Source: an uncultured Gammaproteobacteria bacterium (GTDB lineage: Bacteria > Patescibacteriota > Microgenomatia > Levybacterales > UBA12049). Taken from it: a stretch of 64,000 bases of DNA. Position 1 is the first letter of the stretch. The number at the start of each line of letters is the position of its first letter. Below, one piece after another: positions 1,680 to 38,374 of this stretch. The stretch covers positions 13,827-77,826 of the forward strand of contig CAYQEJ010000006.1 of NCBI GenBank assembly GCA_964416505.1, given 5' to 3'. The notes beneath the pieces are model-generated. The model saw nothing but the letters and a program-made list of their open reading frames with translations. It searched no databases and was not told where the DNA came from. The position numbers and the translations under genes were made by a program.

Positions 1680-3479
1680 ATGAGCGCGAAGCAAATTATT
1701 GATATTTATATTAGTTTTTTTGAAAAAAGAGGACATAAAAGAATTCCTAATTCTCCGCTTATTCCTGAAAATGATCCGACCACGCTTTTTACGAGCTCAG
1801 GAATGCAACCTTTAGTGCCATATCTCTTGGGAGAAACCCATCCGCAGGGAAATCGCTTAGTAGATGTGCAGAATTGCTTCCGCGCAGTAGACATAGATGA
1901 AGTAGGAGACAATAGACATACTACATTTTTTAGAATGCTCGGAAACTGGAGTCTGGGAGATTATTTCAAGAAAGAGCAACTTCCATGGTTTTGGGAATTC
2001 CTAACTAAAGAGCTGAGGATTGATCCAAAAAAACTTTTTGTAACTGTTTTAGAAAGTCCGGAACTTAATCAAACAGATGAAGAGTCAATTCAGATCTGGA
2101 ATGAAATTTTTAACATAGAAGGGTTAAATCGTGGGGATAGAATTCACAAGTATAACGTTGATAAAAACTGGTGGTCAAGATCAGGTACTCCAGATAAAAT
2201 GCCAGTGGGCGAACCAGGCGGCCCAGACTCAGAGGTTTTTTATGATTTTGGAACTCCCCACGATAAAAGATTTGGAGACATGTGCCATCCTAACTGTGAC
2301 TGCGGAAGATTTATAGAAATTGGAAATTCTGTTTTCATGCAATACATAAAAACAGAAGAAGGATTCAATGAGCTTCCTAAAAAAAATGTAGATTTTGGTG
2401 CCGGAGTTGAAAGACTTCTTATGGCCGTAGAAAATCAATCAGATATTTTTAAAACTTCTCTTTTCGCGCCAATCATAAAATCCATAGAAGAATTAACTAA
2501 TAAAAAATATGAAGAAAATTCCAGAGAAATGAGAATCATAGCTGATCATTTAACCGCCTCAGTCTTCTTAAGTAACAGCGGTGTAATCCCAAGCAACAAA
2601 GATCAAGGTTATATTTTGCGCCGCGTTATAAGGAGAAGCACGGATAATTTAAATGTACTAGGAAGCGAGAATCTAGAACCTATAATTAAAGCAATTGTGG
2701 ATCAATATTCTTCTACTGATGAAGCGCTAAATACTAAATTTGATGAAATTAAATCTTTAATCCTTAAAGAATCAACATCTTATAAAAAAACTTTAAATGA
2801 AGCAAAGAAGCTAATTGAAAAAGAGCTTACCAAATCTGGTGGAGATAAAAAAATATCTTCAGACTTAGCATTTAAAGCCATGTCTTCCTACGGCCTCTCT
2901 CCAACTCAGCTCAAAAATCTAGGATATGAATTTAACGAGATAGAGCTCGCAGACTTAATCGATAAGCACGTTGAAATTTCCCGTGCTGGAGCGACCAAGA
3001 AATTCGCAGGAGGACTTGCGGATCATTCGGAACAAACTGTAAGAGGACACACTGCGACTCATCTTATGCATCAGGCAATTCGCGATATGCTAGGAACATA
3101 TGTTCATCAGTCAGGATCAAATATTACAAGTGAGAGAGTAAGATTTGATTTTAACTTTGATAGAAACTTAACTGATGAAGAAATTAAGCAGCTTGAAGAA
3201 AAAGTAAACGAAAAAATAAAAGAAAATCTTCCTGTTTATTTCGAGTTTATGCCTTTAGAAAAAGCTAAAGAAATAGGAGCAATTGGTCTTTTTGATGAAA
3301 AATATTCTGATAAAGTAAAAATTTATCTAATTGGAGACAAAGATCCTAGGAAAGCTTACTCTAAAGAATTTTGCGGAGGACCTCATGTAAACTTTACCTC
3401 TGACATAAAATCGTTTAAGATAATAAAGCAGGAAAATATTGGAAATGGCCTGCGTCGCCTATACGTTACGGTAGGCTAG
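1680..3479 (+). CDS. alaS: alanine--tRNA ligase, short form (catalytic + editing domains, no C-Ala domain)
   Basis: Class II AlaRS N-terminus (HKRIPNSPLIPENDPTTLFTSSGMQP...FRMLGNWSLGDYFK). Editing-domain zinc motifs HTATHLMHQAIR and CGGPHV are present. At 599 aa versus ~870, the C-terminal oligomerisation/C-Ala domain is absent. Confidence 0.9.
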   Translation: MSAKQIIDIYISFFEKRGHKRIPNSPLIPENDPTTLFTSSGMQPLVPYLLGETHPQGNRLVDVQNCFRAVDIDEVGDNRHTTFFRMLGNWSLGDYFKKEQLPWFWEFLTKELRIDPKKLFVTVLESPELNQTDEESIQIWNEIFNIEGLNRGDRIHKYNVDKNWWSRSGTPDKMPVGEPGGPDSEVFYDFGTPHDKRFGDMCHPNCDCGRFIEIGNSVFMQYIKTEEGFNELPKKNVDFGAGVERLLMAVENQSDIFKTSLFAPIIKSIEELTNKKYEENSREMRIIADHLTASVFLSNSGVIPSNKDQGYILRRVIRRSTDNLNVLGSENLEPIIKAIVDQYSSTDEALNTKFDEIKSLILKESTSYKKTLNEAKKLIEKELTKSGGDKKISSDLAFKAMSSYGLSPTQLKNLGYEFNEIELADLIDKHVEISRAGATKKFAGGLADHSEQTVRGHTATHLMHQAIRDMLGTYVHQSGSNITSERVRFDFNFDRNLTDEEIKQLEEKVNEKIKENLPVYFEFMPLEKAKEIGAIGLFDEKYSDKVKIYLIGDKDPRKAYSKEFCGGPHVNFTSDIKSFKIIKQENIGNGLRRLYVTVG

Positions 3480-3485
3480 TTCTCT

Positions 3486-5786
3486 ATGAAATTACCAAAT
3501 CTGCCCTTTTTGGAGAAAAAGAATAACTCAGAGTATTTCCTCTCATTGGTACTTCGCGATGAAAAAGCTAGCGCTGTAGTTTTTCATGAAATAAATGGAA
3601 AAATTAACGTGGTAGGAGAACACGTAGAAAATTTCAAAACTTCTATAGAAGACGCCACAGAAGATGAACTATTAGAAATAATCGATAAGGCAGTCTCAAC
3701 TGCTGAAAAAAGTCTTCCCCCAAATGTTCAGAGTCAAAAAACAATTTTTGGTGTAAAAGAAGATTGGATTGAAAATGGAAAGATAAAACCTCAATATCTT
3801 TCAAAACTTAAAAAAGTAAGCGATGAACTGGATTTTAAACCAATGGGATTTTTGGTAATTCCAGAAGCTATTGCGCATTTGCTGGCTAAGGAAGAAGGTG
3901 CTCCTATTAGCGCAATCCTAGCTGAAGTAGGACATAAATCTACAAGCGTCTCAATAATAAGAGCTGGAAAGTTGATAGAAACAAAAAATGGACCGATTTC
4001 TGATTCCATGGTAGAAAGCGTAGAGAATTTAATAAAACAATTTACCATAGAAACCTTACCAGCAAGAATTATCTTATTTGATGGAGGACGTGAAGATATT
4101 CAACAAAAATTTATTTCACATAAGTGGAGCAGAGAACTTCCCTTCCTACATCTTCCCCAAGTAAGCGCACTCCCAGCGAATTTTGACGCAAGAGCGGTAC
4201 TTTCCGGGGCTGCAACTCAAATGGGATTTGATGTTTTCGAAGCTTCAGTTACGAAAGCTGAAAAAATCGATAAAGGAGAGGTTCCTGAAATGGAAAAGCC
4301 GATAAAAGAAGAGGAAGATAAAACCCTAGGCGAAGCAGCGACTGAGTTTGGTTTTGTTGGCGGAGACATAAAAGACGAAGAGAAACCAGACGAAAAGATT
4401 GAAGAAGATGAAGAAATTGAAACGCTAGAATCAAACGAGCCAAAGATTAATGAAAAAATGCACATGGATGAAAAACCAAAAACAGCTGTTATGGATAACA
4501 TTTCCCCTGCCGATCAGTTTAGGGAAATTCCAGATGAAATAAAATTAAATAATGCTGATAAAAAACCTCTTCCAATTAATGCATCATTTATATCTATTGG
4601 CATTTTAAATTTTGTTAAAAAAATTCACATAGGAAAATTTGTTAAAGGCGCCAATAGCTCCAGGAAAAAACTTTTAATTGGCATAATTCCATTAGCTATC
4701 TTACTTTTAATTCTCTATTTATATCTTTTTGGGAGAAGCGCTACTGTAACTCTGGGTATTAATGGGCAGGAAAAAGAAAAAGAAGTAGATGTAACTTTTT
4801 CTCAAAGTGAATCTACTAATGCCTCTGAAGACATAATAAATTCAAATTTCATTACAGTTACGGAGGATGGGAAAAAATCTATCCCAACAACCGGTAAAAA
4901 AGAAGTTGGAGATAAAGCAAAGGGAGTGGTAACAATGTTTAACAGCAACTCAAATGGCGTAACTCTCCCAGCCGGAACAATAATTACTTCTTCAAATGAC
5001 CTCAAATTCTCAACTGATAAAGCTGTTACAATAGCTTCTTCCTCTGGAGATATTTTTTCAGGAACAGAACCTGGAAAAGCTGATGTTCCTGTTACTGCAG
5101 AAAAATTTGGAACTAACTATAATCTCCCAAGCAATACTAAATTTAGCGTAGAAGGAAGTTCTTCTATAGCTGCAAAAAATGATAAAGCATTTTCTGGTGG
5201 AACTAAAAAAGAAATTAAAGTTGTCGCTAAAAAAGATTTAGAAAAATTAGCAACCGACCTTCAAAAACAATTAGAATCAAGCGCCCAAGATGATCTGAAA
5301 AAACAGGCAGATAATGATTCAACTATTCTTCCAAATTTCATTACAGTTGAGTTTGATAAAAAAAGCTATTCTAAGGATGTAGATGATGAAGCGACTGAAG
5401 TAAGTCTTACTGCAAGTATAAATTATATTGGTGTTACGTATAAGAATGAAGATATTTTAGCTTTCGCAAAAGACAAATTAGAAGATGGAAGCGATCTAGA
5501 AGTTGATAAAGATAGCGTGGAAACAAGCGCTACCAATATTAAGAGCAAAGGAAAATCTGCAACAGGAAATCTCAAAATTAAAGCAAGACTTGTACCAAAA
5601 CTTGATCAAAAAACTCTCATAAAAGAAATAAAAGGTAAATCTACCAAAGAAGCTACTAGAAAACTAAATGAAATCGATGAGGTAAATAAGGTAGATATTA
5701 AAATTTTTCCACCAATTCCATTTCTACCAAATCGTCTTCCCTTCACCTCAGGGAAAATAAAAATTTCAACGGAGAAAAATGGCTAA
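3486..5786 (+). CDS. membrane protein: N-terminal FtsA/PilM-like actin-fold domain, one TM helix, large extracellular C-terminal domain
   Basis: N-terminal ~380 aa resemble the actin-like ATPase fold of FtsA/PilM (e.g. PISAILAEVGHKSTSVSIIRAGKLIETKNGPISDSMV). An acidic linker follows, then the TM segment LLIGIIPLAILLLILYLYLFG and a ~350-aa Ser/Thr/Lys-rich ectodomain. It starts 7 nt after alaS and its 3' end overlaps the sortase gene. Confidence 0.5.
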   Translation: MKLPNLPFLEKKNNSEYFLSLVLRDEKASAVVFHEINGKINVVGEHVENFKTSIEDATEDELLEIIDKAVSTAEKSLPPNVQSQKTIFGVKEDWIENGKIKPQYLSKLKKVSDELDFKPMGFLVIPEAIAHLLAKEEGAPISAILAEVGHKSTSVSIIRAGKLIETKNGPISDSMVESVENLIKQFTIETLPARIILFDGGREDIQQKFISHKWSRELPFLHLPQVSALPANFDARAVLSGAATQMGFDVFEASVTKAEKIDKGEVPEMEKPIKEEEDKTLGEAATEFGFVGGDIKDEEKPDEKIEEDEEIETLESNEPKINEKMHMDEKPKTAVMDNISPADQFREIPDEIKLNNADKKPLPINASFISIGILNFVKKIHIGKFVKGANSSRKKLLIGIIPLAILLLILYLYLFGRSATVTLGINGQEKEKEVDVTFSQSESTNASEDIINSNFITVTEDGKKSIPTTGKKEVGDKAKGVVTMFNSNSNGVTLPAGTIITSSNDLKFSTDKAVTIASSSGDIFSGTEPGKADVPVTAEKFGTNYNLPSNTKFSVEGSSSIAAKNDKAFSGGTKKEIKVVAKKDLEKLATDLQKQLESSAQDDLKKQADNDSTILPNFITVEFDKKSYSKDVDDEATEVSLTASINYIGVTYKNEDILAFAKDKLEDGSDLEVDKDSVETSATNIKSKGKSATGNLKIKARLVPKLDQKTLIKEIKGKSTKEATRKLNEIDEVNKVDIKIFPPIPFLPNRLPFTSGKIKISTEKNG

Positions 5787-6492
5787 ATATTATCAAAAAG
5801 GAAAGAAAATAAATTATAAGATTTTTCTTAAATTAATAAGTGTAATTATTTTAATTTTTGGAGGAATTTTATTTGCATACACTTTTTTCCCATTAATCTC
5901 ATGGAAAATATATTTTGCTCCCGCATTTGCCTCTCAAAAAATTCAAACTCCTATCCCAAATCAGACAGTTATAAATCCTTCTAATATTGGCACTCTTATT
6001 GCAAATGCCACCAATTCACTAAATACGGATTATACAAATGCCTACAACTGGTACCCCGGTGCACTTCAAAAATCGAATAACATAGCTACATATAAAATCT
6101 CATTTCCAAAAATTGGCATAACGGACGCAATAGTTTCCAATGAAGATGCTGATCTTTCGAAACATTTAGTGCAATTTAATTCCGATACTCTCCCAGGAAA
6201 GGATGGAAATTCAGTTATATTTGGACACTCTACTCTTCCTCAACTTTATGATCCCAAAAATTACAAAACTATTTTTGCGAATGCATACAAATTAGAAGTG
6301 GGAGATCAAATTATTACAGAGGTTAATGGAATAAAAAATAATTATAAAATTGTAAACATAACTGTAGTGGAACCTACCGACACTTCTCCTCTCGCACAAA
6401 ACTTTACAGACAGTTTTTTAACTATAATTACATGCACGCCACCTGGTACAATTTGGAAAAGACTAATCATAAGAGCAAGAATTGAGAAATAA
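5779..6492 (+). CDS. sortase family transpeptidase
   Basis: N-terminal TM anchor, catalytic His context (NSVIFGHSTLP), TLxTC-type active site (LTIITCTPPGT) and a downstream conserved Arg (RLIIRAR). Confidence 0.8.
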   Translation: MAKYYQKGKKINYKIFLKLISVIILIFGGILFAYTFFPLISWKIYFAPAFASQKIQTPIPNQTVINPSNIGTLIANATNSLNTDYTNAYNWYPGALQKSNNIATYKISFPKIGITDAIVSNEDADLSKHLVQFNSDTLPGKDGNSVIFGHSTLPQLYDPKNYKTIFANAYKLEVGDQIITEVNGIKNNYKIVNITVVEPTDTSPLAQNFTDSFLTIITCTPPGTIWKRLIIRARIEK

Positions 6493-6624
6493 TGGAAAGA
6501 ACAGGTATAAAAAGAATTTTAGTAAATATATGGCCTACGATTTATCGAATAGTAAATAATACTTTTTATTTTTTTATTAATTTTTTTAAAAATTTAATAA
6601 ACTTAATGTTAAACCAAATTAAAA

Positions 6625-7899
6625 ATGGATGAAAAAGAACAAGCTATAGCAGCTATCAGAAAAAAACTTGTTGGCAAAAACTTAACCTATAAAGAGATCT
6701 ATGCAATTATGGATCAGATCTCCCAAAACAAATTAGGAGATATTCTCACTACTTATTTCGCTGCCTCTGGTTTTTCAAAAGGTTTTTCAGATGATGAAAT
6801 TTATTATCTTACAAAAGCCATGGTAGAAACAGGACAACAATTAAAATTCTCAGGAATAGTTGCAGATAAACATTCCATTGGGGGAATTCCAGGAACGAGG
6901 ACTACTTTGATAGTTATTCCTATTATTGCTTCCGCTGGATTTAAAATTCCCAAAAGCTCATCGCGCGCCATCACCACTCCTTCAGGAACAGCAGATGACA
7001 TGGAAATCTTAGCTCCTGTAAATTTAACAAAAAAGAAAATTTACGATGTAGTTGAAAAAACAAACGCCTGCATAGTTTGGGGAGGAAGCTTCAATATCGC
7101 TCCAGCTGATGACATCATTATAAAAGTAGAAGAAGCACTTCTTTTTGAAAGCTACGACAAAATTCTAATATCAATAATGGCGAAAAAGGTAGCATTTGGA
7201 AGCAATCATGTAGTCATAGACGTTCCATATGGAAAATATGTAAAAGTCCATACGCTTACTGACGCAAAACTTATAAAATCAAAATTCGAAAAATTAGCAA
7301 AAAAATTCAATATAAAAATTGAAGTACTTGTTCATAAAACCGAAGAACCAGCAGGACGCGGAATCGGACCAGCACTTGAAGTAAGAGAGTCACTAAGAGT
7401 TCTTGAACAAGATTCATTAAAAAGCGAGGATCTCGAAGCAAGAAGCATAAATCTAGCAGGAACACTTTTGGAGATCTGTCTTGCAGATTCAAGTCATGAG
7501 CTCCAAAAATCAATTAGAGAAAAGTATAAAAATGGCTTCAACTGGGCGCAAGATATTTTGACCTCAGGACAAGCTCTCGTTAAGATGAAAGAAATAATTA
7601 AAGAACAGGGTGGAAATCCAAACATTAAAAGCTCTGGTATAAAAATAGGCAAACAATCATTCACTCTAAAAGCTTCAAAAAAATGCGAGATTGAAAGTTT
7701 TAATATAAAAAATCTAACTCTTATTTCAAGAATCTTAGGTGCTCCAAATATGAAGGGATCTGGTATATATTTAAACAAAAAAATTGGCGAAAAAATCAAT
7801 GCTGGCGACGTAATCTGTACTTTTTATTCTGATTCTGTGTATAATCTTAAGGAAGGTAAAGAGTCAATTAATAATTTCCCTTTAATAAACTTTAAATGA
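6625..7899 (+). CDS. thymidine/pyrimidine-nucleoside phosphorylase family (GT family 3 fold)
   Basis: KHSIGGIPGTRTTLIVIPIIASAG and TPSGTADDME are typical of thymidine phosphorylase / AMP phosphorylase. Confidence 0.8.
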   Translation: MDEKEQAIAAIRKKLVGKNLTYKEIYAIMDQISQNKLGDILTTYFAASGFSKGFSDDEIYYLTKAMVETGQQLKFSGIVADKHSIGGIPGTRTTLIVIPIIASAGFKIPKSSSRAITTPSGTADDMEILAPVNLTKKKIYDVVEKTNACIVWGGSFNIAPADDIIIKVEEALLFESYDKILISIMAKKVAFGSNHVVIDVPYGKYVKVHTLTDAKLIKSKFEKLAKKFNIKIEVLVHKTEEPAGRGIGPALEVRESLRVLEQDSLKSEDLEARSINLAGTLLEICLADSSHELQKSIREKYKNGFNWAQDILTSGQALVKMKEIIKEQGGNPNIKSSGIKIGKQSFTLKASKKCEIESFNIKNLTLISRILGAPNMKGSGIYLNKKIGEKINAGDVICTFYSDSVYNLKEGKESINNFPLINFK

Positions 7900-9485: not shown

Positions 9486-10118
9486 TCAATTACTTAACTT
9501 AATATTTCGAATTAGTGTAGTTGTTCTTCCAAATTTATTTTCTACCTGAAAATTTATAGCGGTTGTTCCCGGAAACAATGTTACCGTTTTTTTAAAACTT
9601 CCATCGGGATTTATAGTAACCTGCTCATTCTCCACCATCAAAATTCCATTTGGATCTGTTTTTCCGCTCACCTCGATAGTTAAATTCTTTACTGCTTCAT
9701 TTTCTTTGGGAGAATCAACTTTTAATCCAGGGTTCAGAATAGCAGATCTATATTGGAATACCAAAAACAAAGTAATAAGTAAGAATATTAACCCAATTAA
9801 AACTGCACTTCTCCCAATTTTAAATCTTGGCAAAACTCTTTCGGATTGAGTCAGACCTCGCGGTAAAACTTCAATATTTTTCTTTTCATCAAATTCACGT
9901 CTAAAAATTGCTAGACTCTTTTCTACCGGAAGACCCAAAAACTTGGCATAATTTCTAACAAATCCGTATGCATAAGATGGACCAGGAAGTTTTTTATATT
10001 CACCTTTTTCAATAGCTTGTAGAAAATCCGCTCTTATCTTTGTAGCCTTAGAAACCTCTTCTATTGTAAGGTTTTTTATTCTTCGCTCCTCCTGAAACTG
10101 GACCCCAATTCTAATCAT
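9486..10118 (-). CDS. rodZ: RodZ-like cytoskeletal protein (HTH + TM + C-terminal domain)
   Basis: N-terminal Xre-type HTH (LTIEEVSKATKIRADFLQAIEKGEY), a mid TM helix and a C-terminal beta-rich domain. Confidence 0.6.
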   Translation of the reverse strand: MIRIGVQFQEERRIKNLTIEEVSKATKIRADFLQAIEKGEYKKLPGPSYAYGFVRNYAKFLGLPVEKSLAIFRREFDEKKNIEVLPRGLTQSERVLPRFKIGRSAVLIGLIFLLITLFLVFQYRSAILNPGLKVDSPKENEAVKNLTIEVSGKTDPNGILMVENEQVTINPDGSFKKTVTLFPGTTAINFQVENKFGRTTTLIRNIKLSN

Positions 10119-10122
10119 AATT

Positions 10123-12219
10123 CTACTGCGCCTGAGGTTCTCCTAAGATTTGTGAAGGATCTTTTATTAAAACATCTCTTGGCTTACTTCCCTCAGCTCG
10201 ACCCACAATTCCTGCTGCTTCTAATTGATCCAGAATTCTTGCCGCACGAGAATATCCAATAGAAAGCCTTCTCTGGAGAAGCGAGGCCGAAGCTTTATCA
10301 TATTCACAAATAACTCTAACTGCTTCAGCAAATACCGGATCTTTCCCATCAGCTCCCGAAGTTCCAACCCCCGCTCCTTTAGGAGTATAAGGTGTTGAAA
10401 TAATTTCTTCAGTGTATTCAACTGCTGGAGACTTGGATTTAAGAAACTCAACTAATTTTTTAACTTCTTTTTCGGAAACAAAAGCCCCTTGAATACGAGA
10501 TGGTTTCGCCTGATCCGGAGGTATATAAAGCATATCTCCACGACCTAAAAGCTTTTCTGCTCCAGGTCCATCTATTATAACTCTGGAATCAATCATAGAA
10601 GAAACATTGAAAGCAATACGAGCTGGAATATTTGCTTTAATTAGTCCGGTAATAACATCAACCGATGGTCTCTGAGTAGCAACAACTAAATGTATTCCTG
10701 TAGCACGAGCCATTTGAGCCAGACGAGCAATCGTATCCTCGACTTCAACTGGTGCAAACATCATAAGATCAGCCAACTCATCAATAAAAATTATTATATA
10801 AGGAAGCGCTTGAAAACCAGCCAGCTCATTATATCCATCAATATTTCGGACACCACGCTCAGCAAAAGTCTTATATCTTCTATCCATTTCATTTGTTGCC
10901 CATTTAAGCGCTGAGAGAATCTTTTCCACATCTACAATCACTGGCACCATGAGATGCGGGATTCCATTGTAACTAGTAAGTTCTACTCTCTTAGGATCAA
11001 TTAAAATAAGCTTTACCTCTTCAGGTGAAGCCCTAAAAAGAAGGGAAGTGATAAATGAATTTACAAGAACAGATTTTCCCGAGCCAGTGGTTCCAGCAAC
11101 CAATACGTGAGGCATTTTTCCAATATCTGCAATCACAGGATTTCCTGAAACATCAAGCCCTAGGGAAACAGCTAATTTAGATTTTGCTTTCCTCATCACT
11201 TCTGAAGAAAGCATGGTTCTCAATGTTACGACTTCAAGGGATTTGTTTGGAATCTCAATTCCCACAAGATTTCTTCCTGGAATTGGAGCTTCAATTCTAA
11301 TTTGTCCCGTAGGTGCCTGTGTATTTAATGCTAAATCATTTGCCAAAGAGGTAATCTTGGAAACTTTTGTTCCCAATGCAATCTCTAAAGCATACTGTGT
11401 TACCGCTGGACCTAGATTTACCTCTACAACCTTTGCAGTTATTCCAAAACTTTGAAGTGTTCGCTCAATTACCGCTGCAGTTTCCTTAACGTCTCCTCTA
11501 TCTGCTTTTCCTCCTTCACCATCATTTAGAAGATCAAGAGGTGGATATTCCCAAATAAGTCCCGACGAGAGCGTATTTGAGACAAGCTTTTCCGTAATAA
11601 GAGAATCGTCTTTTTTAACAGTATTTGAAACAATTGCGGGTCCATTTTTATTAAAAGATGAATCTTTTATGGTCATCTGCTTGCTAAGAAGAGGATCTTT
11701 TTGTTTTTTAAACATAGCTGTGGGAACCATTTTTCCGCTTGTCTTTTTAAAAGCTCCCAATCCCTTAAGAATCTCATCCACTGAAGTATCAAAAAGAACG
11801 ATTGCTCCAATAAAAATACCAGCTAAAAATACCAAAAGAGTTCCAATAGGGGTAATAACGTCAGAAATGTTTGCAAACATTAGCTGTCCAATATATCCAG
11901 ATCTAAAAAGAACAACAGCTGAACCATAAAGAATTAAAAAACCAATCGCTACGTTTGGCTTAGACAAAGCAAGTTTTGTTTTAAAAAACAGAAACCCGAA
12001 CAAAATCAAAACAAAACCTAGAAAAAATGAAAACGGACCAAAATACTCTCTTATGAAAGTATTTATATAAATAAAAGTATCTCCTGAATTTGTAAAAGAT
12101 AGAAACAGCAAAAGCCCTGTTACGATTTGTCCTAGAGCGAAAATAGTATAAATGGTTTTAGTCTTAAGCTTTAGCTTGAATTTACCACGCTTTCCATAAG
12201 ACCCTCTTTTTCTGGCCAT
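10123..12219 (-). CDS. ftsK: DNA translocase FtsK/SpoIIIE
   Basis: N-terminal polytopic membrane domain, linker, and motor domain with Walker A HVLVAGTTGSGKSV and the FtsK gamma-like C-terminus. Confidence 0.9.
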   Translation of the reverse strand: MARKRGSYGKRGKFKLKLKTKTIYTIFALGQIVTGLLLFLSFTNSGDTFIYINTFIREYFGPFSFFLGFVLILFGFLFFKTKLALSKPNVAIGFLILYGSAVVLFRSGYIGQLMFANISDVITPIGTLLVFLAGIFIGAIVLFDTSVDEILKGLGAFKKTSGKMVPTAMFKKQKDPLLSKQMTIKDSSFNKNGPAIVSNTVKKDDSLITEKLVSNTLSSGLIWEYPPLDLLNDGEGGKADRGDVKETAAVIERTLQSFGITAKVVEVNLGPAVTQYALEIALGTKVSKITSLANDLALNTQAPTGQIRIEAPIPGRNLVGIEIPNKSLEVVTLRTMLSSEVMRKAKSKLAVSLGLDVSGNPVIADIGKMPHVLVAGTTGSGKSVLVNSFITSLLFRASPEEVKLILIDPKRVELTSYNGIPHLMVPVIVDVEKILSALKWATNEMDRRYKTFAERGVRNIDGYNELAGFQALPYIIIFIDELADLMMFAPVEVEDTIARLAQMARATGIHLVVATQRPSVDVITGLIKANIPARIAFNVSSMIDSRVIIDGPGAEKLLGRGDMLYIPPDQAKPSRIQGAFVSEKEVKKLVEFLKSKSPAVEYTEEIISTPYTPKGAGVGTSGADGKDPVFAEAVRVICEYDKASASLLQRRLSIGYSRAARILDQLEAAGIVGRAEGSKPRDVLIKDPSQILGEPQAQ

Positions 12220-12605: not shown

Positions 12606-13898
12606 ATGAATCCAGATGTAATTGAAAAAACATACCCAATCGAGTTCCGAGAAGAAGAGGCAAAAATTTTAGGCGAACATATAAAAAGCAGAAGATCTGT
12701 AGTTTTAATGGGTATGAAGAGAGTTGGAATTAGCAACTTCTTAAGGTTTTTTCTCTATCATGAAGACATAAATAAGAAATATTTGGATGAAAAAAATTAT
12801 TTTATAATTCCAGTTGATTTAAATGATTTAGTTGAAAGAGAAATATATCCATTTTGGGTTTTAACTTTTAAAAGATTAGCTGACGCTGTCGAAAAATCCG
12901 ATCTGTCTGAAGAAATAAAAAAACAAATTGATTTTTATTTCTCAGATAGCATTCAATCTCAAGATTTATTTCTAACAATTGACTACTTAAGAAAAAGCCT
13001 AGTTTATCTTTCTGATAACAATTATCTTCCTACGATATTTTTCCTTCGCTTCGATAGAATGAAGGATGCACTAACCCATGATCTTTTCGCTAATATACAA
13101 GGACTTTTAGATGCTACACACAACAGACTATCTTATGTTATTACGAGCGCCAGAAGCCTTGATCACTTAGAACCAAATATTTTTACTCGACAATCGATGT
13201 TGGTTTTTTCTGATAATGTTTATGTAAAACCAGCCCAAAGAAAAGACACATTAATAATATTTGAATCAAGTCTTAAAAAATACAATTTGGAATTAGATGA
13301 GAACTTAGTCGGCGAACTTTTAAAGTTGGTTGATGGACATACTCAGTACCTTTTGTATGCATTAATTTCAATTAAAGAATATGGAGAAAAAATTAAACCC
13401 AGTGAACTCTTTGAATTTTTAAAAAATGATGAACGTATTTCTCTGCAATCAGAAGAATTATGGGAAAGTTTAAACGGGGGAGAGCAAGAAGTTTTAATTA
13501 AAATCGCGTCTAAAGAAAAAGTTGAAGAAAATGAGTTAAAGGAAAACGATTATCTAATAAATGCTGGATTTATAGATCCTAAAAGCTTAAAAATATTTAA
13601 TCCTATCTTTGATTTCTTTGTAAAAACAAAATCCCATGATAAGAAAAAATTAAAAACAGCGTCAGAATTTTCTAAAAAAGAAAATCTGCTTCTGAAATAT
13701 CTTGAAACAAACAAAAATGAGATTTGTGAAAGAGAAGAAATAATAGAAAACGTTTGGCCCGAAGCAGAAAGCCTGGGAGTAACAGACTGGGCAATAGATA
13801 GATTAGTAGCTCGTGTTAGAAATAAACTTAAAGATAATGATAAAAATTATGAAATTGTTACCATTAAAACAAGAGGCTACAAACTAATAGATAGGTAG
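12606..13898 (+). CDS. putative transcriptional regulator: degenerate Arch_ATPase-like NTPase domain + C-terminal OmpR/PhoB-type winged helix
   Basis: N-terminus SVVLMGMKRVGISNFLRFF resembles the P-loop of the archaeal/bacterial ATPase family (G.RRVGKTSLL) but has GIS instead of GKT. The C-terminal 100 aa match the trans_reg_C fold (REEIIENVWPE...DRLVARVRNKL...IKTRGYKLI). Confidence 0.55.
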   Translation: MNPDVIEKTYPIEFREEEAKILGEHIKSRRSVVLMGMKRVGISNFLRFFLYHEDINKKYLDEKNYFIIPVDLNDLVEREIYPFWVLTFKRLADAVEKSDLSEEIKKQIDFYFSDSIQSQDLFLTIDYLRKSLVYLSDNNYLPTIFFLRFDRMKDALTHDLFANIQGLLDATHNRLSYVITSARSLDHLEPNIFTRQSMLVFSDNVYVKPAQRKDTLIIFESSLKKYNLELDENLVGELLKLVDGHTQYLLYALISIKEYGEKIKPSELFEFLKNDERISLQSEELWESLNGGEQEVLIKIASKEKVEENELKENDYLINAGFIDPKSLKIFNPIFDFFVKTKSHDKKKLKTASEFSKKENLLLKYLETNKNEICEREEIIENVWPEAESLGVTDWAIDRLVARVRNKLKDNDKNYEIVTIKTRGYKLIDR

Positions 13899-26623: not shown

Positions 26624-29011
26624 TTATTTATTATTTTTCCTAACAGAAGCGCCCTTAACACTTGGCCCAAAAAGATCAGTCAGGAGAGCATTCGACTGAT
26701 TAATCAGATTCTCATATCTTCTCATCTGATCATAATCGCTTTCACTTAACCATTCCTTTTTAGTAATTTTATTATTTATATATAATGCAATTTCATTTTC
26801 TTCCTTAAGAAGATCTACTGCTTTTTTGATCTTAATTTGATCTTTACTCGAATCCCCTATCCAAGTTTTTATAACGACTAATACTTCCGATGAATTACTT
26901 GCCTCTTTTGACCAATATTGAACTTCCTTGTCTGTATAAGTTGGAACACCGTCAACCAAAGAAAAATTTTTATTTATATTTTCTTTTGGCCAACATGAAG
27001 AGCGACATCCGCCTACGATATTTGTAATATTTGTCTTTAAAAGGAATCCCCAATTTCTTGAGTCCATACTATATTCCCTATTGTCTCCTAGAATTACGTA
27101 ACTATTCGCTGGTATTTCGATTACGCTTCCTTCTTTAATAAATGCATCACCATAAGTTTTTGTATTACCAACATATCCCTCAACAAGTCTTTGATCATTG
27201 ATATAAACATTTCCACCTAATATCTTTAACTTTTCACCCGGTAATCCGATTATTCTTCCTATTCTATGTTCAGATAAATTTCTTGGAAATTTATATATAA
27301 CAACATCGCCCCTATTGATTAGATCTCTATTCTCATCAAAACCAGTAGTCGAGTATTCTTCAGTATTCATGTAGCTAGGATTCATAGCGTCTCCATTAAT
27401 TACAAAATTTTTATGGCCTGGGAGCCAACCATTAAGAAGAAGATTTAGAACCACAAATCCACTAATGATCAAAATTATTACTGAAACAATTAAGTTCCAT
27501 AAGATTGGATGACTTCTAATCTTTTCTTCATTTGTTTTAAGATATCTTAAGCTAACCGATGAACCAATCCCCCTGTAAAACCACCCTTCAACTTCGACAT
27601 CTCGACCAATCAATTTCTTTACTTTCCGTAGAGCAAAAAATAAATTGCCAATAAATGAAAGCAGTGAATTGTAATTTAAAAAAGTTAAACCAGATTTATC
27701 CTGAAGCATAACATCTTCGCTAAAAACATATCCCGGAATACCTTTTCCAATTATTTTTCCATTAAGCCTAATCACTCTTCCTCTTATTGGAGAAGCATAT
27801 ATATTTCTCATCTCATCAATAATTGTTGTATCAGATGCTTTTCCAAATGGATGTGAATAAATTGTTTTTATTAATAACCCCATTGAAAAACCAATTAATG
27901 CAGCCCAAAGATTAATAAAATAAAAGGCAAAAACTGCAAGCATTATTGGCATAATTAAAACTAAGAGTCCTATAAAAAAGTTAACATACAGCTTTACTTT
28001 ATTTATTTTCAATCTTGTTATCGCGGCGTCTATATCAAATGAAAAAGGTTTTCCGAGTTTTTTCGATAGATCACTTAAGTGATCTATTCTCCTACCTGTT
28101 AAAGGGTGTGTTGATGATAGTTCTAATAATTTCGCCCACGGGCTGACACGATCATAAGCAAGTGCTTCTGCAATCAAATTTGGATTACTATTGGTTTCGT
28201 ATGTAATAAGCCCAACATTTTTAGCATTTTTTACATCCGTTATTCCTAAATGTCTTGTGCTCTGTAAAAGTCTTTTAGATTTATCATCATCTTTTGCCGC
28301 CACAATTCCATATGCAATCTTTATTAAAGCGTTGGATAAATCTTGAGGAGACGTAAGTTTTGCTGAAAATTCATCCGCTAATCTTTCCCTAATCCTACTC
28401 AAATAATAAAGTAAATAAACACTGACAATATATAGAGCATAAGAAGCTAAAGCGATCAACTTTAGATTTCCAGATTTCTTCCCTTTTGCTCTTATTAAAA
28501 CTGCGTAGATTTCATATAAAATCTGAACAAGCGTACTAGCTATCATCATTACGACAAAATCCCTATGAACTATATGCCCAAGCTCATGAGCAATTACTGC
28601 TTCCTGTTCATTTTCACTTAAATATTCGAATATACCCTCAGTAATTATTAATCTAGAGTTGTATCTTGCAGTTCCGTATGTAAAGGCGGTCGGATTCTTA
28701 TCAGGAATTATTCCAATTTTAGGAAATTTGAAATTATGCTCTGCGCAAACTTTTTTAATTAATTCTGCTAATTTTACATGTTTTTCTGTAAATTCTTGCT
28801 CAGTCTCGAAACTTATTTTATAAAAAATTTTATTAAAAAAATCAGTTAAAGCGGGAGAGATAATCCAGGAAATAAAATTTATTATTATCGTTAATCCAAT
28901 GGCAAAATAAACATTAAGTTGATCTAAATAAATTAATGATGCCAAAACTATAGCGAATACAAATGAAGTAATTAGTCCGAGAGTAAATAAAGATGCTCCA
29001 AAAAGCCTCAC
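26624..29011 (-). CDS. fusion protein: M48 (HtpX-like) zinc metalloprotease + signal peptidase I (S26)-like domain with non-canonical catalytic residues
   Basis: HEXXH (AVIAHELGHIVHRD) and a downstream ADEFSA glutamate, within multiple TM helices. The C-terminal half has SPase I boxes: NGDAMNPSY (box B, Ala where the Ser nucleophile is expected), RGDVVIYKFP (box C), GRIIGLPGEK (box D, Gly where the general-base Lys is expected) and VILGDNREYSMDSRNWGFL (box E). Confidence 0.7.
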   Translation of the reverse strand: MRLFGASLFTLGLITSFVFAIVLASLIYLDQLNVYFAIGLTIIINFISWIISPALTDFFNKIFYKISFETEQEFTEKHVKLAELIKKVCAEHNFKFPKIGIIPDKNPTAFTYGTARYNSRLIITEGIFEYLSENEQEAVIAHELGHIVHRDFVVMMIASTLVQILYEIYAVLIRAKGKKSGNLKLIALASYALYIVSVYLLYYLSRIRERLADEFSAKLTSPQDLSNALIKIAYGIVAAKDDDKSKRLLQSTRHLGITDVKNAKNVGLITYETNSNPNLIAEALAYDRVSPWAKLLELSSTHPLTGRRIDHLSDLSKKLGKPFSFDIDAAITRLKINKVKLYVNFFIGLLVLIMPIMLAVFAFYFINLWAALIGFSMGLLIKTIYSHPFGKASDTTIIDEMRNIYASPIRGRVIRLNGKIIGKGIPGYVFSEDVMLQDKSGLTFLNYNSLLSFIGNLFFALRKVKKLIGRDVEVEGWFYRGIGSSVSLRYLKTNEEKIRSHPILWNLIVSVIILIISGFVVLNLLLNGWLPGHKNFVINGDAMNPSYMNTEEYSTTGFDENRDLINRGDVVIYKFPRNLSEHRIGRIIGLPGEKLKILGGNVYINDQRLVEGYVGNTKTYGDAFIKEGSVIEIPANSYVILGDNREYSMDSRNWGFLLKTNITNIVGGCRSSCWPKENINKNFSLVDGVPTYTDKEVQYWSKEASNSSEVLVVIKTWIGDSSKDQIKIKKAVDLLKEENEIALYINNKITKKEWLSESDYDQMRRYENLINQSNALLTDLFGPSVKGASVRKNNK

Positions 29012-33414: not shown

Positions 33415-33846
33415 CTAGAATCCAATTTTCTCAACAATTAAATATACAAAAAAATTATTATACAAATAATGCATAAATATTGCGATGATAACACTCACAA
33501 TTAACCAATAGACTCCCCTCTTACCCAATAAATAAATGAAGACAATATTTGAAGTATGAATTAAAGTTGTAAAAATCAATCTAACAAAAAACAATTTCAT
33601 GTTTCCTAATGCTAATATATTGGTTAAGTATAGAAATGATTCAGAAAGAGAAAATAAGATACCTGATAAAATAACTAGATTAATCAGCTTCCTTTTTATT
33701 TTTTCTTCTTCTTTAAGTATAAAAATAACAATTAACGCTGAAAAAAATTCTTCAATTACTGATGGAAAAGGAATAATCCATTCCAAAACCATTATTGGTA
33801 ATGGGCCAAAAAAGGAAAGAAGAGGAAGTATGTATAGCGCATTCAT
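33415..33846 (-). CDS. small polytopic membrane protein, possibly CPBP/PrsW-like
   Basis: Four to five TM helices. Glu pair (VIEEFFSAL) and a HxxxN-like HYLYNN resemble CPBP motifs only weakly. Confidence 0.35.
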   Translation of the reverse strand: MNALYILPLLSFFGPLPIMVLEWIIPFPSVIEEFFSALIVIFILKEEEKIKRKLINLVILSGILFSLSESFLYLTNILALGNMKLFFVRLIFTTLIHTSNIVFIYLLGKRGVYWLIVSVIIAIFMHYLYNNFFVYLIVEKIGF

Positions 33847-36800
33847 TAGTTAGAAATTATATACTGATCATTAACCCACCCTTTTATCAGTTTATCGTCA
33901 GTTTCTATTTCAACCTGAACCCATCCTGGTGATTCGTTTATTTTTTTTGCTTTCAAATTAGCGGTAATACTTTTTAAGATTTTCGTTGAGGTAGAAGGTC
34001 CGGATCTTAAATTTACTGCACTTGGCGTTGCAATAATTTCAATATTTTGGATTTCGGATTTTACTCCTAAAACAGACTTCGAATCTTCAATGTTTACTTC
34101 ATCATCTTCTCCTCTAGTTTTTTTATTTTCTTTTGTTTCAATAGTTTTTTCTCGGGGTAAATCATTTCGTAATTCATGAGTAATTTTCTTAGAAATAAAA
34201 AATACAAAAATTATTGAAATTAAAACTAAGATTATTAAAAACATGATTATTAATATTTTTTTTGTAACTCTCTTATCTAATTCATCAATCAAATCAGCAA
34301 GAGGCTGAAAATAATTTTTATAAAATTTCTTAGAGTCATTGTCTTTTCTACCATGTCCCGCTAAGGCTCTCATATAAAACGCCATAAAAACAAAACCAGC
34401 AAGTAGAATAATTACTATTCCCCACACAGCAAATGTTTGAACACCACCCACAAATCCGAATAATGAATTTGCTGAACTAGCTGAAGTAGCTAGCGTCTTA
34501 AGATCATCTATCTCAGCTTTAGCCTTATCTACCTGAGTCTTAGCATCACGGTATGCTTTTATTCTCTGCTCTGGAGTATTAGCTTCTTTCTGAATTCTAC
34601 TAGCTGAATCCAAAGAAGCTATCACATCTGCATAAAGAGTCGCTCCTTGACCAAAATAAGTTGTCCCCTTTAGTGGCCCATAAATTTCTTTTGCTTGAAT
34701 TCTTAGTGAATCTATTTCCTCGTCAGAAATTTTCCAAATATCTTCTACTTCAACTGAATAAATTTTTGTTTGATTAGGAGACAAAACTACCTGACCGCTT
34801 GCATAATAAGCGTCTTCTGAAGCATCATACTCAATTGTCAAATCATCATCTTTTTTTATCACATCTTTATCTGTAGCTTCTTTAGGAAGATAAAACTTAA
34901 CCGGAACAGTTTGCCTTATTGAAGTTGGGTTTGTAATTAAAGTTTTAAATATAATACTTCCTTCTTCAAGCCAAGTCTGAATAATAGGGGACTTCGTACC
35001 ATTTTCTAAAAGCGTCTTATTTGCTTGTGTTAATGCCTGAAGAGCTAAAACGCTATTTTTTAAACTCTGCAGATCTGAAGCATTTGCTTTCGAAAGCGTA
35101 AGAATATCTGAAACTCCCGAAATTGAATTTGAAGATGAGACATCAGAGGAAATTGAATTGACAGCATCTATAATATCAGATGCTGTATAGCTATCCCATT
35201 TTGCCAAAACATCTGAAAGACCTGCTCCTGAGGTATCGAGATCTTGGATTGTTTCTTTATTTAATTTAAGTCTTCCATACAAAGTCGCATCTGAAGAAGT
35301 ATCAGAACTAGTACCGATCTTGGTTTGCATAGATGATATTTCTGAAATTATCGATTGCAAATCCTGATATGCTGTTGTCGATTTCCCATTATAGTTTAAT
35401 TCGCTTCTCAAACTATTTAGATTTGCCTCTGTTGTAATAGCTGAATTATAAATATCATCTGCAGTTCTTGATCCCCATTTTCCTTTTATACAATTAACCT
35501 GTCCAAAGATCGTAGAATCCAAACATGTATCGGCTGAGTCACCTAGCGAAGCGACATCCAGATTGTTGATTGCAGTCATTAAATCAGAGATTGTATAAGA
35601 ACCCCACTTAGCAAGAATCGAATCAGCTTTGGAGTCTATAGAATCCACAGTAGTATTTACAGAATCCACAGTTGTACCTATCGCATCAACGCTTGATTGA
35701 ACTCCAGCTACATCAGTAGAGACCTGAGACAAACTTTTGTTATCCGGACCCTTAATTGAGGTTGTACTCGATGAAATATCCTCTCGGGTGGCTTGTATTT
35801 TACCAAACACCGTAGAAGCCGCAGAATTATCGCCAGAAGAACCTATATTTGTATTTAGAGTTTGTGCATATGTCTTTATTGCTTGAATATCCTGATATGC
35901 AGTTGAAGATTTTCCACCATAATCCAATTCACTTCGCAGAGAAGCAGAATACGTTGCAGCATTATTTGCAGCAGCATAAAGAGTATCCGCAGTTTGACTA
36001 CCCCACTTATCTCTAATACACTTTATCCCTCCGAAAACAGTACTTGTTACACAACTATCTGCGCTCGTTCCTAGACTAGACTCCAAATCATCTACATATC
36101 CTATAACATCAGACATTGAATAAGATCCCCATTTACTTAAGATGTCAGTAGTATCCGAAAAAATAGAATCGATATTCGTATCAAGAGTATCAACTTTTGC
36201 TTCAATTGAATTTAAAGAATTTTGCGCGGTAACTAGTCCAGAATTAATCTGGGTAAGATCTTTATTCCCGGAACCTTTTATAGAGGTTGTAGCTGAAGAT
36301 GTAGCATTATTTACATCTGTTTTCGTTGCCAAACTTTCCCCGTTATCTAGACTTGCTCCTGTTAGAGTTCTTGTTGCTGAGCTCCAAATATCCGTAACCA
36401 ATGTCCCAAATGTAGTTAACGATCTCGCTGAATAACTCCAGATATCAGAAATTAATGTGCCGAATGAACTTAAAGTTCTAGATGGATAATTCCAAATATC
36501 AGCTACAGCAGGAATACTATTTTGAAGCTTTTCTCCAAAAGAACCATTATTTGTATGCGCGCTCGCTGTAGCATCCCACACCTGATCAGGAATATTTTCT
36601 TCAATAGTAAAAGTTTTATCGAGCCTTAACGTTTGACCATTTGTAGTGCAAGTAATTTGACTTCTATAAGTTCCCAAAGTCATACCTGAAGTATTAAAAG
36701 CATAGTAATACCATCCATCATTTTGGGCAGCCGAGGTCATAGATTGAGAATTTAAGAATAAGGAACCATCGGGGTATCTTGCGGTTAATGTACAAGTAGC

Positions 36801-36977
36801 ATCTATTATGGGGTCATAACTATCATCATAAAGATATTCCCCTATTGAACAACTAGAGCCTTCCGTGCATTTTTGATAGCCTGCAGTTGCGGCATAAACA
36901 ACATTTTTTGAAATAAATACAGAAAAACAGATAAAAACTATTAAAAATACAGTTTTTATCTTAATATGAGACAGCAT
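33846..36977 (-). CDS. large (1043 aa) tandem-repeat surface protein with C-terminal TM pair and SH3b domain
   Basis: Signal peptide, N-terminal beta-rich domain, about 2.3 copies of a ~170-aa Ser/Thr-rich repeat each with a Cys pair (ADSCVTSTVFGGIKCIRDKWGS / ADTCLDSTIFGQVNCIKGKWGS). Two TM helices, then a bacterial SH3-like domain (PSAVNLRSGPSTSTKILKSI...GWVQVEIE...KGWVNDQYI). Confidence 0.75.
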   Translation of the reverse strand: MLSHIKIKTVFLIVFICFSVFISKNVVYAATAGYQKCTEGSSCSIGEYLYDDSYDPIIDATCTLTARYPDGSLFLNSQSMTSAAQNDGWYYYAFNTSGMTLGTYRSQITCTTNGQTLRLDKTFTIEENIPDQVWDATASAHTNNGSFGEKLQNSIPAVADIWNYPSRTLSSFGTLISDIWSYSARSLTTFGTLVTDIWSSATRTLTGASLDNGESLATKTDVNNATSSATTSIKGSGNKDLTQINSGLVTAQNSLNSIEAKVDTLDTNIDSIFSDTTDILSKWGSYSMSDVIGYVDDLESSLGTSADSCVTSTVFGGIKCIRDKWGSQTADTLYAAANNAATYSASLRSELDYGGKSSTAYQDIQAIKTYAQTLNTNIGSSGDNSAASTVFGKIQATREDISSSTTSIKGPDNKSLSQVSTDVAGVQSSVDAIGTTVDSVNTTVDSIDSKADSILAKWGSYTISDLMTAINNLDVASLGDSADTCLDSTIFGQVNCIKGKWGSRTADDIYNSAITTEANLNSLRSELNYNGKSTTAYQDLQSIISEISSMQTKIGTSSDTSSDATLYGRLKLNKETIQDLDTSGAGLSDVLAKWDSYTASDIIDAVNSISSDVSSSNSISGVSDILTLSKANASDLQSLKNSVLALQALTQANKTLLENGTKSPIIQTWLEEGSIIFKTLITNPTSIRQTVPVKFYLPKEATDKDVIKKDDDLTIEYDASEDAYYASGQVVLSPNQTKIYSVEVEDIWKISDEEIDSLRIQAKEIYGPLKGTTYFGQGATLYADVIASLDSASRIQKEANTPEQRIKAYRDAKTQVDKAKAEIDDLKTLATSASSANSLFGFVGGVQTFAVWGIVIILLAGFVFMAFYMRALAGHGRKDNDSKKFYKNYFQPLADLIDELDKRVTKKILIIMFLIILVLISIIFVFFISKKITHELRNDLPREKTIETKENKKTRGEDDEVNIEDSKSVLGVKSEIQNIEIIATPSAVNLRSGPSTSTKILKSITANLKAKKINESPGWVQVEIETDDKLIKGWVNDQYIISN
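35180..36320 (-). repeat. diverged in-frame tandem coding repeats (~510 nt unit) within the 1043-aa surface protein gene
   Basis: The protein-level repeats map to roughly these coordinates. Nucleotide identity looks only moderate by eye. Repeat boundaries are approximate. Confidence 0.45.
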
Positions 36978-37957: not shown

Positions 37958-38374
37958 ATGGGCGCCAAATTTGATCCAATTTTAGGAAAACTCAGAACAG
38001 AAGACTTAGGAATAACTGAAGGAAGTTTCGGAATAACAATTGATGGCGGAGGAAACGTAATCTCAACAGGCGTAAAGGGATACGTTACTATTCCATACAA
38101 CTGCACTATTACGGGATGGGATATATTTGCTGATCAAGTAGGATCCTGCGTAATTGATCTTTGGAAAGATACTTATGCAAATTTTTCTCCCAACATTTCT
38201 GATTCTATTACTGGTTCTGAAAAACCTACTTTAACCTCAGCGCAAAAAAATCAGGATAATTCACTATCTACCTGGACAACATCTATTAGCGCAGGGGACA
38301 TAATTGCATTTAATGTAGATAGTGCTACAACAGTAACTCGGGTAAATGTTATTATTAAAGTGAATAAAATTTGA
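37958..38374 (+). CDS. hypothetical protein (138 aa), first gene of a GC-rich cassette
   Basis: No signal peptide. Gly/Thr/Ser-rich, beta-type composition (GSFGITIDGGGNVISTGVKGYVTIPYNCTITGWDIF). Its stop overlaps the next start (ATGA at 38371). Confidence 0.5.
   Translation: MGAKFDPILGKLRTEDLGITEGSFGITIDGGGNVISTGVKGYVTIPYNCTITGWDIFADQVGSCVIDLWKDTYANFSPNISDSITGSEKPTLTSAQKNQDNSLSTWTTSISAGDIIAFNVDSATTVTRVNVIIKVNKI

Follow-up and report, generated by a model that had tools for sequence, protein, structure and literature searches.

A Levybacteria membrane protein with an actin-like domain, encoded in overlap with a sortase gene

An open reading frame (ORF) on the plus strand at positions 3486..5786 of the 64,000-nt stretch analysed here (the window; positions 13,827–77,826, forward strand, of contig CAYQEJ010000006.1, assembly GCA_964416505.1, from an uncultured bacterium) encodes a 766-aa product, called X in the following. 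X is a conserved, uncharacterised membrane protein of Levybacteria, which are uncultured bacteria of the candidate phyla radiation (CPR). It is a bitopic actin-fold protein, probably of the scaffold kind, in which both the combination of domains and the genomic partner, a sortase, are new; the architecture and the linkage are solid. With somewhat less than even confidence, X is regarded as a Levybacteria-specific bitopic envelope scaffold that works with the sortase encoded directly downstream. The family is at present found in databases only under the name 'baseplate J/gp47 family protein', and literature searches gave no paper on it.

Conservation of X and its linkage to the sortase gene

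The original prediction described the X gene and a sortase gene overlapping by 8 nt, and both ORFs exist as described, the shared sequence being ATGGCTAA. The X reading frame is not a chance one, since 623 homologues were found at 90% clustering, all of ~720–820 aa, and a profile of the N-terminal domain (N-domain) alone retrieved 1,380 clusters at 50% identity. Among the best 150 of these clusters the N-domain almost always starts at residue 1 of proteins of ~700–820 aa, indicating that the architecture is fixed, and the shorter entries among them are probably partial predictions.

A pattern scan with one genome per species gave 234 matching genomes, and the best 80, studied as species-representative loci, all belong to metagenome-assembled genomes (MAGs) of Levybacteria or Patescibacteria. 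A search from a distant member retrieved only proteins of ~700–820 aa together with one 618-aa entry that is probably partial, and the named sources were Levybacteria, Patescibacteria or unclassified/mislabelled MAGs only. Many third-party annotation records of species representatives carrying the X operon (loci L005–L084) are titled 'uncultured Gammaproteobacteria', and a few Lysobacterales, Sulfotelmatobacter or Saccharimonadales; all of these titles are evidently the result of mislabelling or mis-binning. No relatives of X were found in 2.9 million IMG/VR viral contigs, and PADLOC gave no match.

The gene for X has the sortase gene as its direct neighbour in every examined locus whose contig runs past X. 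The two frames overlap by 8 nt in 62 of 82 loci and by 4 nt in six, and in the remaining 14 they overlap by 1 nt, abut or are at most 24 nt apart, with one exception where the nearest start is located 131 nt downstream. The order AlaRS, X, sortase, 46-aa ORF, nucleoside/AMP-phosphorylase-like gene and MltG is found in essentially every sufficiently flanked locus, down to 36% identity in X. Relatives with 28–31% identity keep AlaRS, X and the sortase together despite a rearranged neighbourhood, in which the FtsK/RodZ block is inverted, co-directional and upstream, and RuvX is inserted after the sortase, in one case with a fused e2b2-RuBisCO gene as well. In one divergent locus (L088:9372-11471) an IF-2B-type (e2b2) domain and a RuBisCO large subunit are fused in a 699-aa protein, whose gene is located just upstream of the phosphorylase gene. 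The cluster alaS-ruvX-mltG is conserved and ancestral in Firmicutes, and X and the sortase therefore look like a two-gene module inside it. The earlier proposal that X works with the sortase agrees with this linkage, which is tight, conserved and survives rearrangement.

Domain organisation of X

X was modelled with AlphaFold2 (AF2) on an alignment of 57 sequences, and residues 1–262 were also modelled separately, with a predicted TM-score (pTM) of 0.81 and a structure matching that in the whole-protein model. Four parts can be distinguished, an actin-like domain (14–254), a tether (255–362), a transmembrane (TM) helix (393–415) and an ectodomain (418–766), where the predicted local distance difference test (pLDDT) is ~90 for the first and the last and below 50 for the tether (Table 1). 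An acidic linker, one TM helix and a Ser/Thr/Lys-rich outer region had been read from the translation, and all three were borne out.

Table 1. Features of the X locus, in window positions
Feature	Position	Strand	Basis or remarks
X gene, bitopic protein	3486..5786	+	766 aa; ORF list; homologue set
Cytoplasmic minimal actin-like (ASKHA) domain, aa 14-254	3525..4247	+	AF2 pLDDT ~90; Foldseek PDB
Disordered acidic cytoplasmic tether, aa 255-362	4248..4571	+	pLDDT <50; 24% D+E
FGFxxxD[VI] short linear motif, aa from F288	4347..4370	+	Alignment of 346 sequences
Predicted juxtamembrane helix, aa 364-378, low confidence	4575..4619	+	DSSP on AF2 model, pLDDT 50-60
Single TM helix, aa 393-415	4662..4730	+	Kyte-Doolittle peak 2.8; AF2 helix
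Extracellular domain (topology predicted), aa 418-766	4737..5783	+	AF2 pLDDT ~90
Baseplate-J/Tri2 'wing' type beta-barrel, aa ~473-583	4902..5234	+	Pfam, PHROG, PDB, BFVD matches
Sortase gene	5779..6492	+	237 aa; N-terminal TM ~aa 15-40; H150, C219, R228
46-aa hydrophobic ORF, starts MERTGIKRILVNIWPTIYR, contains INIWPTIYR	6492..6632	+	ORF list; homologous ORFs

The N-terminal actin-like domain

In the AF2 model the domain is built of two RNase-H-like lobes with the order beta-beta-beta-alpha-beta-alpha-beta-alpha, and the 1B, 1C and 2B inserts are absent. Only ~10 residues lie between strand 3 (39–49) and helix 1 (59–74), leaving no 1C/SHS2 insert in lobe 1, and the whole domain comprises ~240 aa as against ~380 for FtsA. 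An FtsA/PilM-like actin fold had been proposed for the N-terminal ~380 residues, and the fold was thus recovered but over the shorter extent 14–254. A Foldseek search of the PDB gave ~600 matches at E<=1e-3; the 50 listed ones have the actin-like/ASKHA fold without exception. The top match is PilM of P. aeruginosa (E=2.4e-10), followed by FtsA of several species (E=8e-10 for 7q6i; query-normalised TM-score (TMq) 0.57–0.59 for 3wqu, with an FtsA range of 0.56–0.59) and by EutJ (E=9e-9, TMq 0.55), which gives the best superposition with a root-mean-square deviation (rmsd) of 4.9 Å over 270 columns. PPX/GppA, MecR2, DnaK, YeaZ and CoaX come after EutJ, and GspL/EpsL are not among the top 50 matches.

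Similarity in sequence could not be found to the same proteins. Pfam and NCBIfam searches with X of the window gave no significant family match for the N-domain, and the FtsA family is absent at E<=1. With 16 and with 57 family members, Pfam gave scattered weak matches to ASKHA families (DUF1464, MreB-like_C, FtsA; E 0.02–0.2), FtsA being matched by one of the 16 members (E=0.17), and neither X nor the family members tested matched PilM_2 or GspL. Searches of the PDB by phmmer and by profile gave nothing significant for the N-domain, and in hhalign the probabilities were all below 1%, namely 0.3% for E. coli FtsA, 0.9% for HofM (a PilM homologue) and 0.3% for GspL. Hence the comparison of residues 1–380 with FtsA, PilM and GspL, suggested as a check of the original prediction, returned no sequence match. 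The N-domain is related to PilM and FtsA at the fold level only and is an orphan by sequence.

The conservation of the nucleotide motifs was read from an alignment of 346 family sequences. The phosphate-1 motif has no DxG but L-[RK]-[DNP]-E-K, the phosphate-2 motif is E147-x-G149 with E in 92% and G in 64% and shows no GGT, and the GG of the adenosine motif is retained in just 39% and 25% of the sequences. Judged from these motifs, the N-domain is probably nucleotide-free, that is a pseudo-ATPase. Positions of more than 90% conservation are KT.F, W94, P119-x-G121-F122, E137-G138-A139-P140, W214 and F220-L221-H222-x-P224. Since the ATP motifs are degenerate while these other surface positions are strongly conserved, the domain might serve as a nucleotide-independent docking domain. 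From established actin and FtsA structures, the absence of the 1B, 1C and 2B subdomains makes the formation of actin-like filaments by X unlikely.

Tether, FGF motif and transmembrane helix

The tether is poorly conserved, with a mean column conservation of 0.23. Within it, the FGFxxxD[VI] motif stands out between variable flanking columns, F288 being conserved in 96%, G289 in 99%, F290 in 100% and D294 in 94% of the 346 sequences. This pattern is typical of short linear binding motifs, and the motif is a candidate partner-binding peptide. The sequence of the predicted juxtamembrane helix that follows is not conserved. An SSRKK sequence is located on the N-terminal side of the TM helix, and by the positive-inside rule X is therefore predicted to have its N-terminus inside and its C-terminus outside.

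The ectodomain

The ectodomain is mostly beta-strand with a long helix at 582–607 in the AF2 model, and has 20% S+T and 15% K+R. The barrel at ~473–583 is its best-conserved part and the only module that can be detected by sequence. Pfam PF04865 (Baseplate_J) matches it with E=9e-10 and 38.6 bits (cutoff 21.1), spanning positions 20–113 of the 255 in the profile, and was matched by all 57 X family members. PHROG_6, 'baseplate wedge subunit', matches X with E=8e-13, and with the family profile residues 77–176 of diffocin Tri2/CD1371 (PDB 8v3w_E) match the barrel with E=1e-5; a GlxA barrel in Pfam matches the same region as well. The barrel contains the motifs YNLPSNTKF and KNDxAFSGGT, which it has in common with phage and diffocin proteins. 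In the diffocin structure paper the matched Tri2 segment is the 'wing' domain, a protein-protein contact in the baseplate that holds peptidoglycan-hydrolase domains (PMC10996793).

Baseplate-J proteins in BFVD superpose well on X over only ~100–114 columns (rmsd 2.3–3.9 Å), while alignments of ~350 columns to phage J proteins have an rmsd above 20 Å and a TM-score of ~0.2. Residues 418–472 ahead of the barrel are beta-strands with no helices. The wedge elements defined for diffocin are an N-terminal helical core bundle, a trifurcation unit and a C-terminal dimerisation domain (PMC10996793), and none of the three is detectable in X. The name 'baseplate J/gp47' thus probably reflects one borrowed barrel and not a wedge protein, as only ~100 columns superpose and beta-strands precede the barrel. 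The remaining part, 584–766, consists of small alpha+beta units, for which Pfam with 57 members gave weak hints of NTF2_YvbJ and FtsH_ext only.

A likeness of the C-terminal domain to PilN, PilO or GspM had been considered, but instead of it the ectodomain carries the baseplate-J wing barrel, and no PilN/PilO families or structures are among its matches in Pfam, Foldseek and BFVD. A divergent DivIB/FtsQ-type protein, named earlier as another identity for X, is likewise not indicated, as no POTRA/FtsQ match was obtained from Pfam at E<=1 for X of the window or among the recurrent matches of the 57 members.

The sortase and the search for sorting signals

The downstream protein matches Pfam Sortase PF04203 (E=4e-19) and TIGR01076 (64 bits, cutoff 39). 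As the original prediction stated, the catalytic residues are intact, H150, C219 (in TIITC) and R228 being aligned with those of solved sortases including 4d70. The best PDB matches are 4d70, deposited as a 'sortase family protein', and the class C entry 8t28, and the protein is below every class-specific NCBIfam cutoff, with class C nearest at 67 bits against 160. A second, C-terminal hydrophobic segment was not detected, and a class C lid motif was not seen in a reading by eye. The sortase thus shares the fold signature and the His/Cys/Arg triad with the class C and D sortases of Gram-positive bacteria but differs in falling below the class cutoffs, in having no adjacent substrate or pilin gene, and in being coupled to X.

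In agreement with the earlier reading of the window, no ORF in it encodes a canonical sorting signal with LPxTG, TM segment and basic tail. The tail of X is proline-rich with the pattern [IL]P[LF]LPxxLP...NIKI, the protein of the window ending in ...RLPFTSGKIKISTEKNG. Of 245 full-length members, not one carries LPxTG within its final 40 residues, and a C-terminal TM segment and a basic tail are missing. The looser pattern [LI]P.[TS][GANS] is found in this stretch in 78 of the 245, and the Thr of RLPFTSG in the window protein is not conserved, variants including LPRSDK, LPKNPA and ISRNSK. The last strand (758–764) is placed within the folded ectodomain by AF2. Two internal sequences were also rejected as sorting sites: IPTTG (aa 465–469), in which only TG is conserved and which sits at a beta-turn, and NLPSNT (aa 546–551), which is a motif of the baseplate-J family and is present in diffocin Tri2 too.

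The tail could still suggest that X is a non-canonical substrate, cut at RLPFTSG and linked to peptidoglycan and thereby coupling membrane, wall and cytoplasmic domain, the more so as its own TM helix would hold the tail near the membrane-bound sortase and about a third of the tails fit the loose pattern. This is highly improbable considering the absence of LPxTG, the variable Thr, the lack of a C-terminal hydrophobic segment and the burial of the last strand, and X was rejected as a sortase substrate on the conservation of its tail. The earlier suggestion that the outer part is processed by the neighbouring sortase is accordingly unlikely, and we infer that X is a partner of the sortase and not a canonical substrate.

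Possible function of X

As a scaffold partnering the sortase, X may work as follows. The actin-fold domain, having lost nucleotide binding, would act as a protein-docking module, and the FGF motif might either recruit a cytoplasmic partner or bind to the actin-fold domain itself. Through the TM helix the cytoplasmic partner or partners, held by the long flexible tether, would be coupled to an extracellular platform, where the barrel-bearing ectodomain may dock the co-translated membrane sortase, or else the substrates or products of the sortase; the contact made by the homologous wing domain of diffocin is a precedent. Sortase-dependent surface or cell-wall assembly would thereby be placed at sites defined from inside the cell, and translation of the sortase would be coupled to that of X via the 8-nt overlap. 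This docking role resembles that of GspL, PilM and membrane-tethered FtsA, in which a cytoplasmic actin-like domain links partners to a transmembrane assembly.

Several observations weigh against a scaffold of this kind. Unrelated genes, namely those for AlaRS and the nucleoside/AMP phosphorylase-like protein, likewise hold their order in the operon, and an 8-nt overlap is found between the small ORF and the phosphorylase gene as well. As all the loci come from one lineage with compact genomes, in which overlaps of start and stop codons are frequent, adjacency and overlaps may partly be a matter of vertical inheritance, and synteny suggests, but does not decide, that X and the sortase are functionally linked. 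Sortases are reported as near-ubiquitous in Microgenomates (PMC6744442), whereas X was found in Levybacteria-type genomes only; in general, a sortase can do without X. The search for a sortase substrate gave none, sorting signals being absent from the window and from ~0.9 Mb of related, largely redundant loci. The FGF motif is not docked on the actin-fold domain by AF2 (pLDDT <50).

It is rather unlikely, but the strongest of the alternatives, that X is a divisome or elongasome scaffold, where an FtsA-like domain is tethered to the membrane and the ectodomain acts on wall synthesis or remodelling, the adjacent sortase being incidental or a reflection of septal sorting. FtsA is among the top structural matches, an actin-fold domain with a flexible linker and a membrane anchor follows the logic of FtsA, and MltG, the RodZ-like HTH_25 protein and FtsK are all located within 6 kb, here and in relatives. 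FtsA and X have in common the two-lobe ASKHA core (Foldseek ~1e-9, TMq <=0.59) and the flexible linker to the anchor, but the anchor is an amphipathic helix in FtsA and in X a true TM helix followed by a 350-aa ectodomain. FtsA and PilM possess a 1C/SHS2 subdomain, which FtsA uses for partner recruitment and polymer contacts; X lacks it, has degenerate ATP motifs and did not match FtsA in sequence. That MltG is close by is accounted for by AlaRS and not by X, as the alaS-ruvX-mltG cluster of Firmicutes is ancestral, and the gene most constantly attached to X on its downstream side is the sortase.

A more far-reaching form of the scaffold reading is distinctly unlikely, namely that X and the sortase, perhaps with the 46-aa membrane peptide, make up a previously unknown envelope-assembly machine. 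The nucleotide-independent actin fold and the FGF motif would in that case act through the single TM helix to control the extracellular wing platform that positions the sortase. Sortase activity would then be controlled from the inside out and would serve to build or anchor a surface structure, for instance a fibre assembled by the sortase or a wall-linked adhesin, for the episymbiotic lifestyle of these CPR bacteria.

The original prediction also pointed to GspL or to PilM-PilN fusions, with X as an alignment component of a type IV pilus or type II secretion system, and this is very unlikely. GspL is bitopic, and its cytoplasmic domain is actin-like/RNase-H-like with an SHS2-type domain II, and functions in docking without the use of ATP. 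The plan of cytoplasmic domain, TM helix and ectodomain is indeed shared, with an actin-like N-terminal part that is on the inner side in both (predicted for X), PilM is the single best match in Foldseek, and PilM with the N-terminal PilN peptide bound is the functional equivalent of an actin-fold domain fused to a bitopic protein, as in X. The resemblance ends there. X has no SHS2-type middle subdomain and no sequence or profile similarity to GspL/EpsL, PilM_2 is not matched, hhalign gives below 1% for both HofM and GspL, and GspL/EpsL are outside the top structural matches. The outer domain of GspL is a ferredoxin-like dimerisation domain, and the ferredoxin-like fold of PilN, PilO and GspM is not that of the X ectodomain with its baseplate-J barrel module. 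The genomic partner is a sortase for X and GspE or GspM for GspL, and no gsp genes are found near X. No pilus or type II secretion genes were recognised when the translations of the window ORFs were read (14 of these ORFs were run against Pfam), and the gene tables of four related loci contain no called gene for a pilus or secretion ATPase, platform protein or pilin. In favour of a pilus role, CPR bacteria are reported to have widespread type IV pilus genes, but against it, separate PilM, PilN and PilO families are reported in CPR genomes (PMC6744442).

It is scarcely credible that X derives from a phage baseplate, whether as the remnant of a prophage or as a domesticated part of a contractile injection system that acts as a wedge subunit: in favour are Pfam Baseplate_J, PHROG_6, many baseplate-J matches in BFVD and the NCBI name, and the barrel is homologous to the wing of baseplate J/gp6/Tri2 (CD1371) proteins with the motifs YNLPxN..F and F.GGT, but only this barrel is homologous, no helical core-bundle segment is located N-terminal to it, and X, unlike the wedge proteins, is TM-anchored and extracellular, is found in a housekeeping operon in all of the examined loci (the best 80 of 234 genomes) with no tail, sheath or other baseplate genes near it, and is absent from the viral contigs. 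A prophage or defence origin was rejected from the gene context, the lack of a PADLOC match and the lack of viral-contig relatives.

Neighbouring genes and other features of the window

The 46-aa ORF downstream of the sortase shares 1 nt with the stop codon of the sortase gene and 8 nt (AATGGATGA) with the gene that follows. Homologues of 47–48 aa are present in L001 and L003, and tblastn gave matches in most loci, but the most divergent clade lacks the ORF. Pfam, PHROG and PADLOC gave no match for it, and it is a possible third member of the X/sortase module.

The AlaRS gene of the window (1680-3479, plus strand) is short, encoding 599 aa (575–646 aa in relatives) with tRNA-synt_2c and tRNA_SAD as the only Pfam domains. 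Longer bacterial AlaRS carry a C-terminal domain, which the protein of the window appears to lack. The 'thymidine phosphorylase-like' gene at 6625-7899 (plus strand) encodes Glycos_trans_3N, Glycos_transf_3 and PYNP_C domains, and its product is probably an AMP/nucleoside phosphorylase of the CPR nucleotide-salvage pathway. A RodZ-like gene (9486-10118, minus strand) with HTH_25, a TM segment and a Glucodextran_B-type C-terminal domain adjoins the FtsK gene (10123-12219, minus strand), and this pair accompanies the AlaRS-X-sortase block, even in inverted form, in the divergent loci L088 and L089.

Farther along the window, the ORF at 26624-29011 (minus strand, 795 aa) was read by eye as a possible fusion, in which a multi-TM metalloprotease of the M48/HtpX type (HELGH) would be followed by a C-terminal domain of the signal peptidase I type (…GDNREYSMDSRNWGF…). 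The 1043-aa product of 33846-36977 (minus strand) is a surface protein rich in repeats and in Ser/Thr. It has a signal-like segment at the N-terminus, two hydrophobic segments late in the sequence and a bacterial SH3_3 domain at the C-terminus, but no sorting signal. The ORF at 38371-40548 (plus strand) starts with TTG and encodes a Thr/Ser/Gly-rich protein of 725 aa with no Pfam match; it lies in a stretch of locally higher GC content (0.41, compared to ~0.33), a 174-aa antisense ORF is located inside it, and it could be a surface or a foreign gene. Between 8000 and 54000 the GC skew is persistently negative and most genes over ~45 kb are on the minus strand, which is consistent with the window being on one replichore with the plus strand as the lagging-strand template.

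Implications for Levybacteria and the ASKHA fold

Databases name X after a phage-like barrel of 100 residues and overlook the actin-fold domain. No paper was found on the substrates or organisation of Microgenomates sortases, and no relevant one on actin-like proteins of Patescibacteria. Should X be the partner of the sortase, this would be the first sortase coupled to a transmembrane actin-fold scaffold, and would give a handle on how the surface is built in ultra-small, host-dependent bacteria. Even if the idea of a sortase partner is wrong, X adds a new, sequence-orphan branch of minimal and probably nucleotide-free ASKHA domains, and a cellular, extracellular use of the baseplate wing domain.

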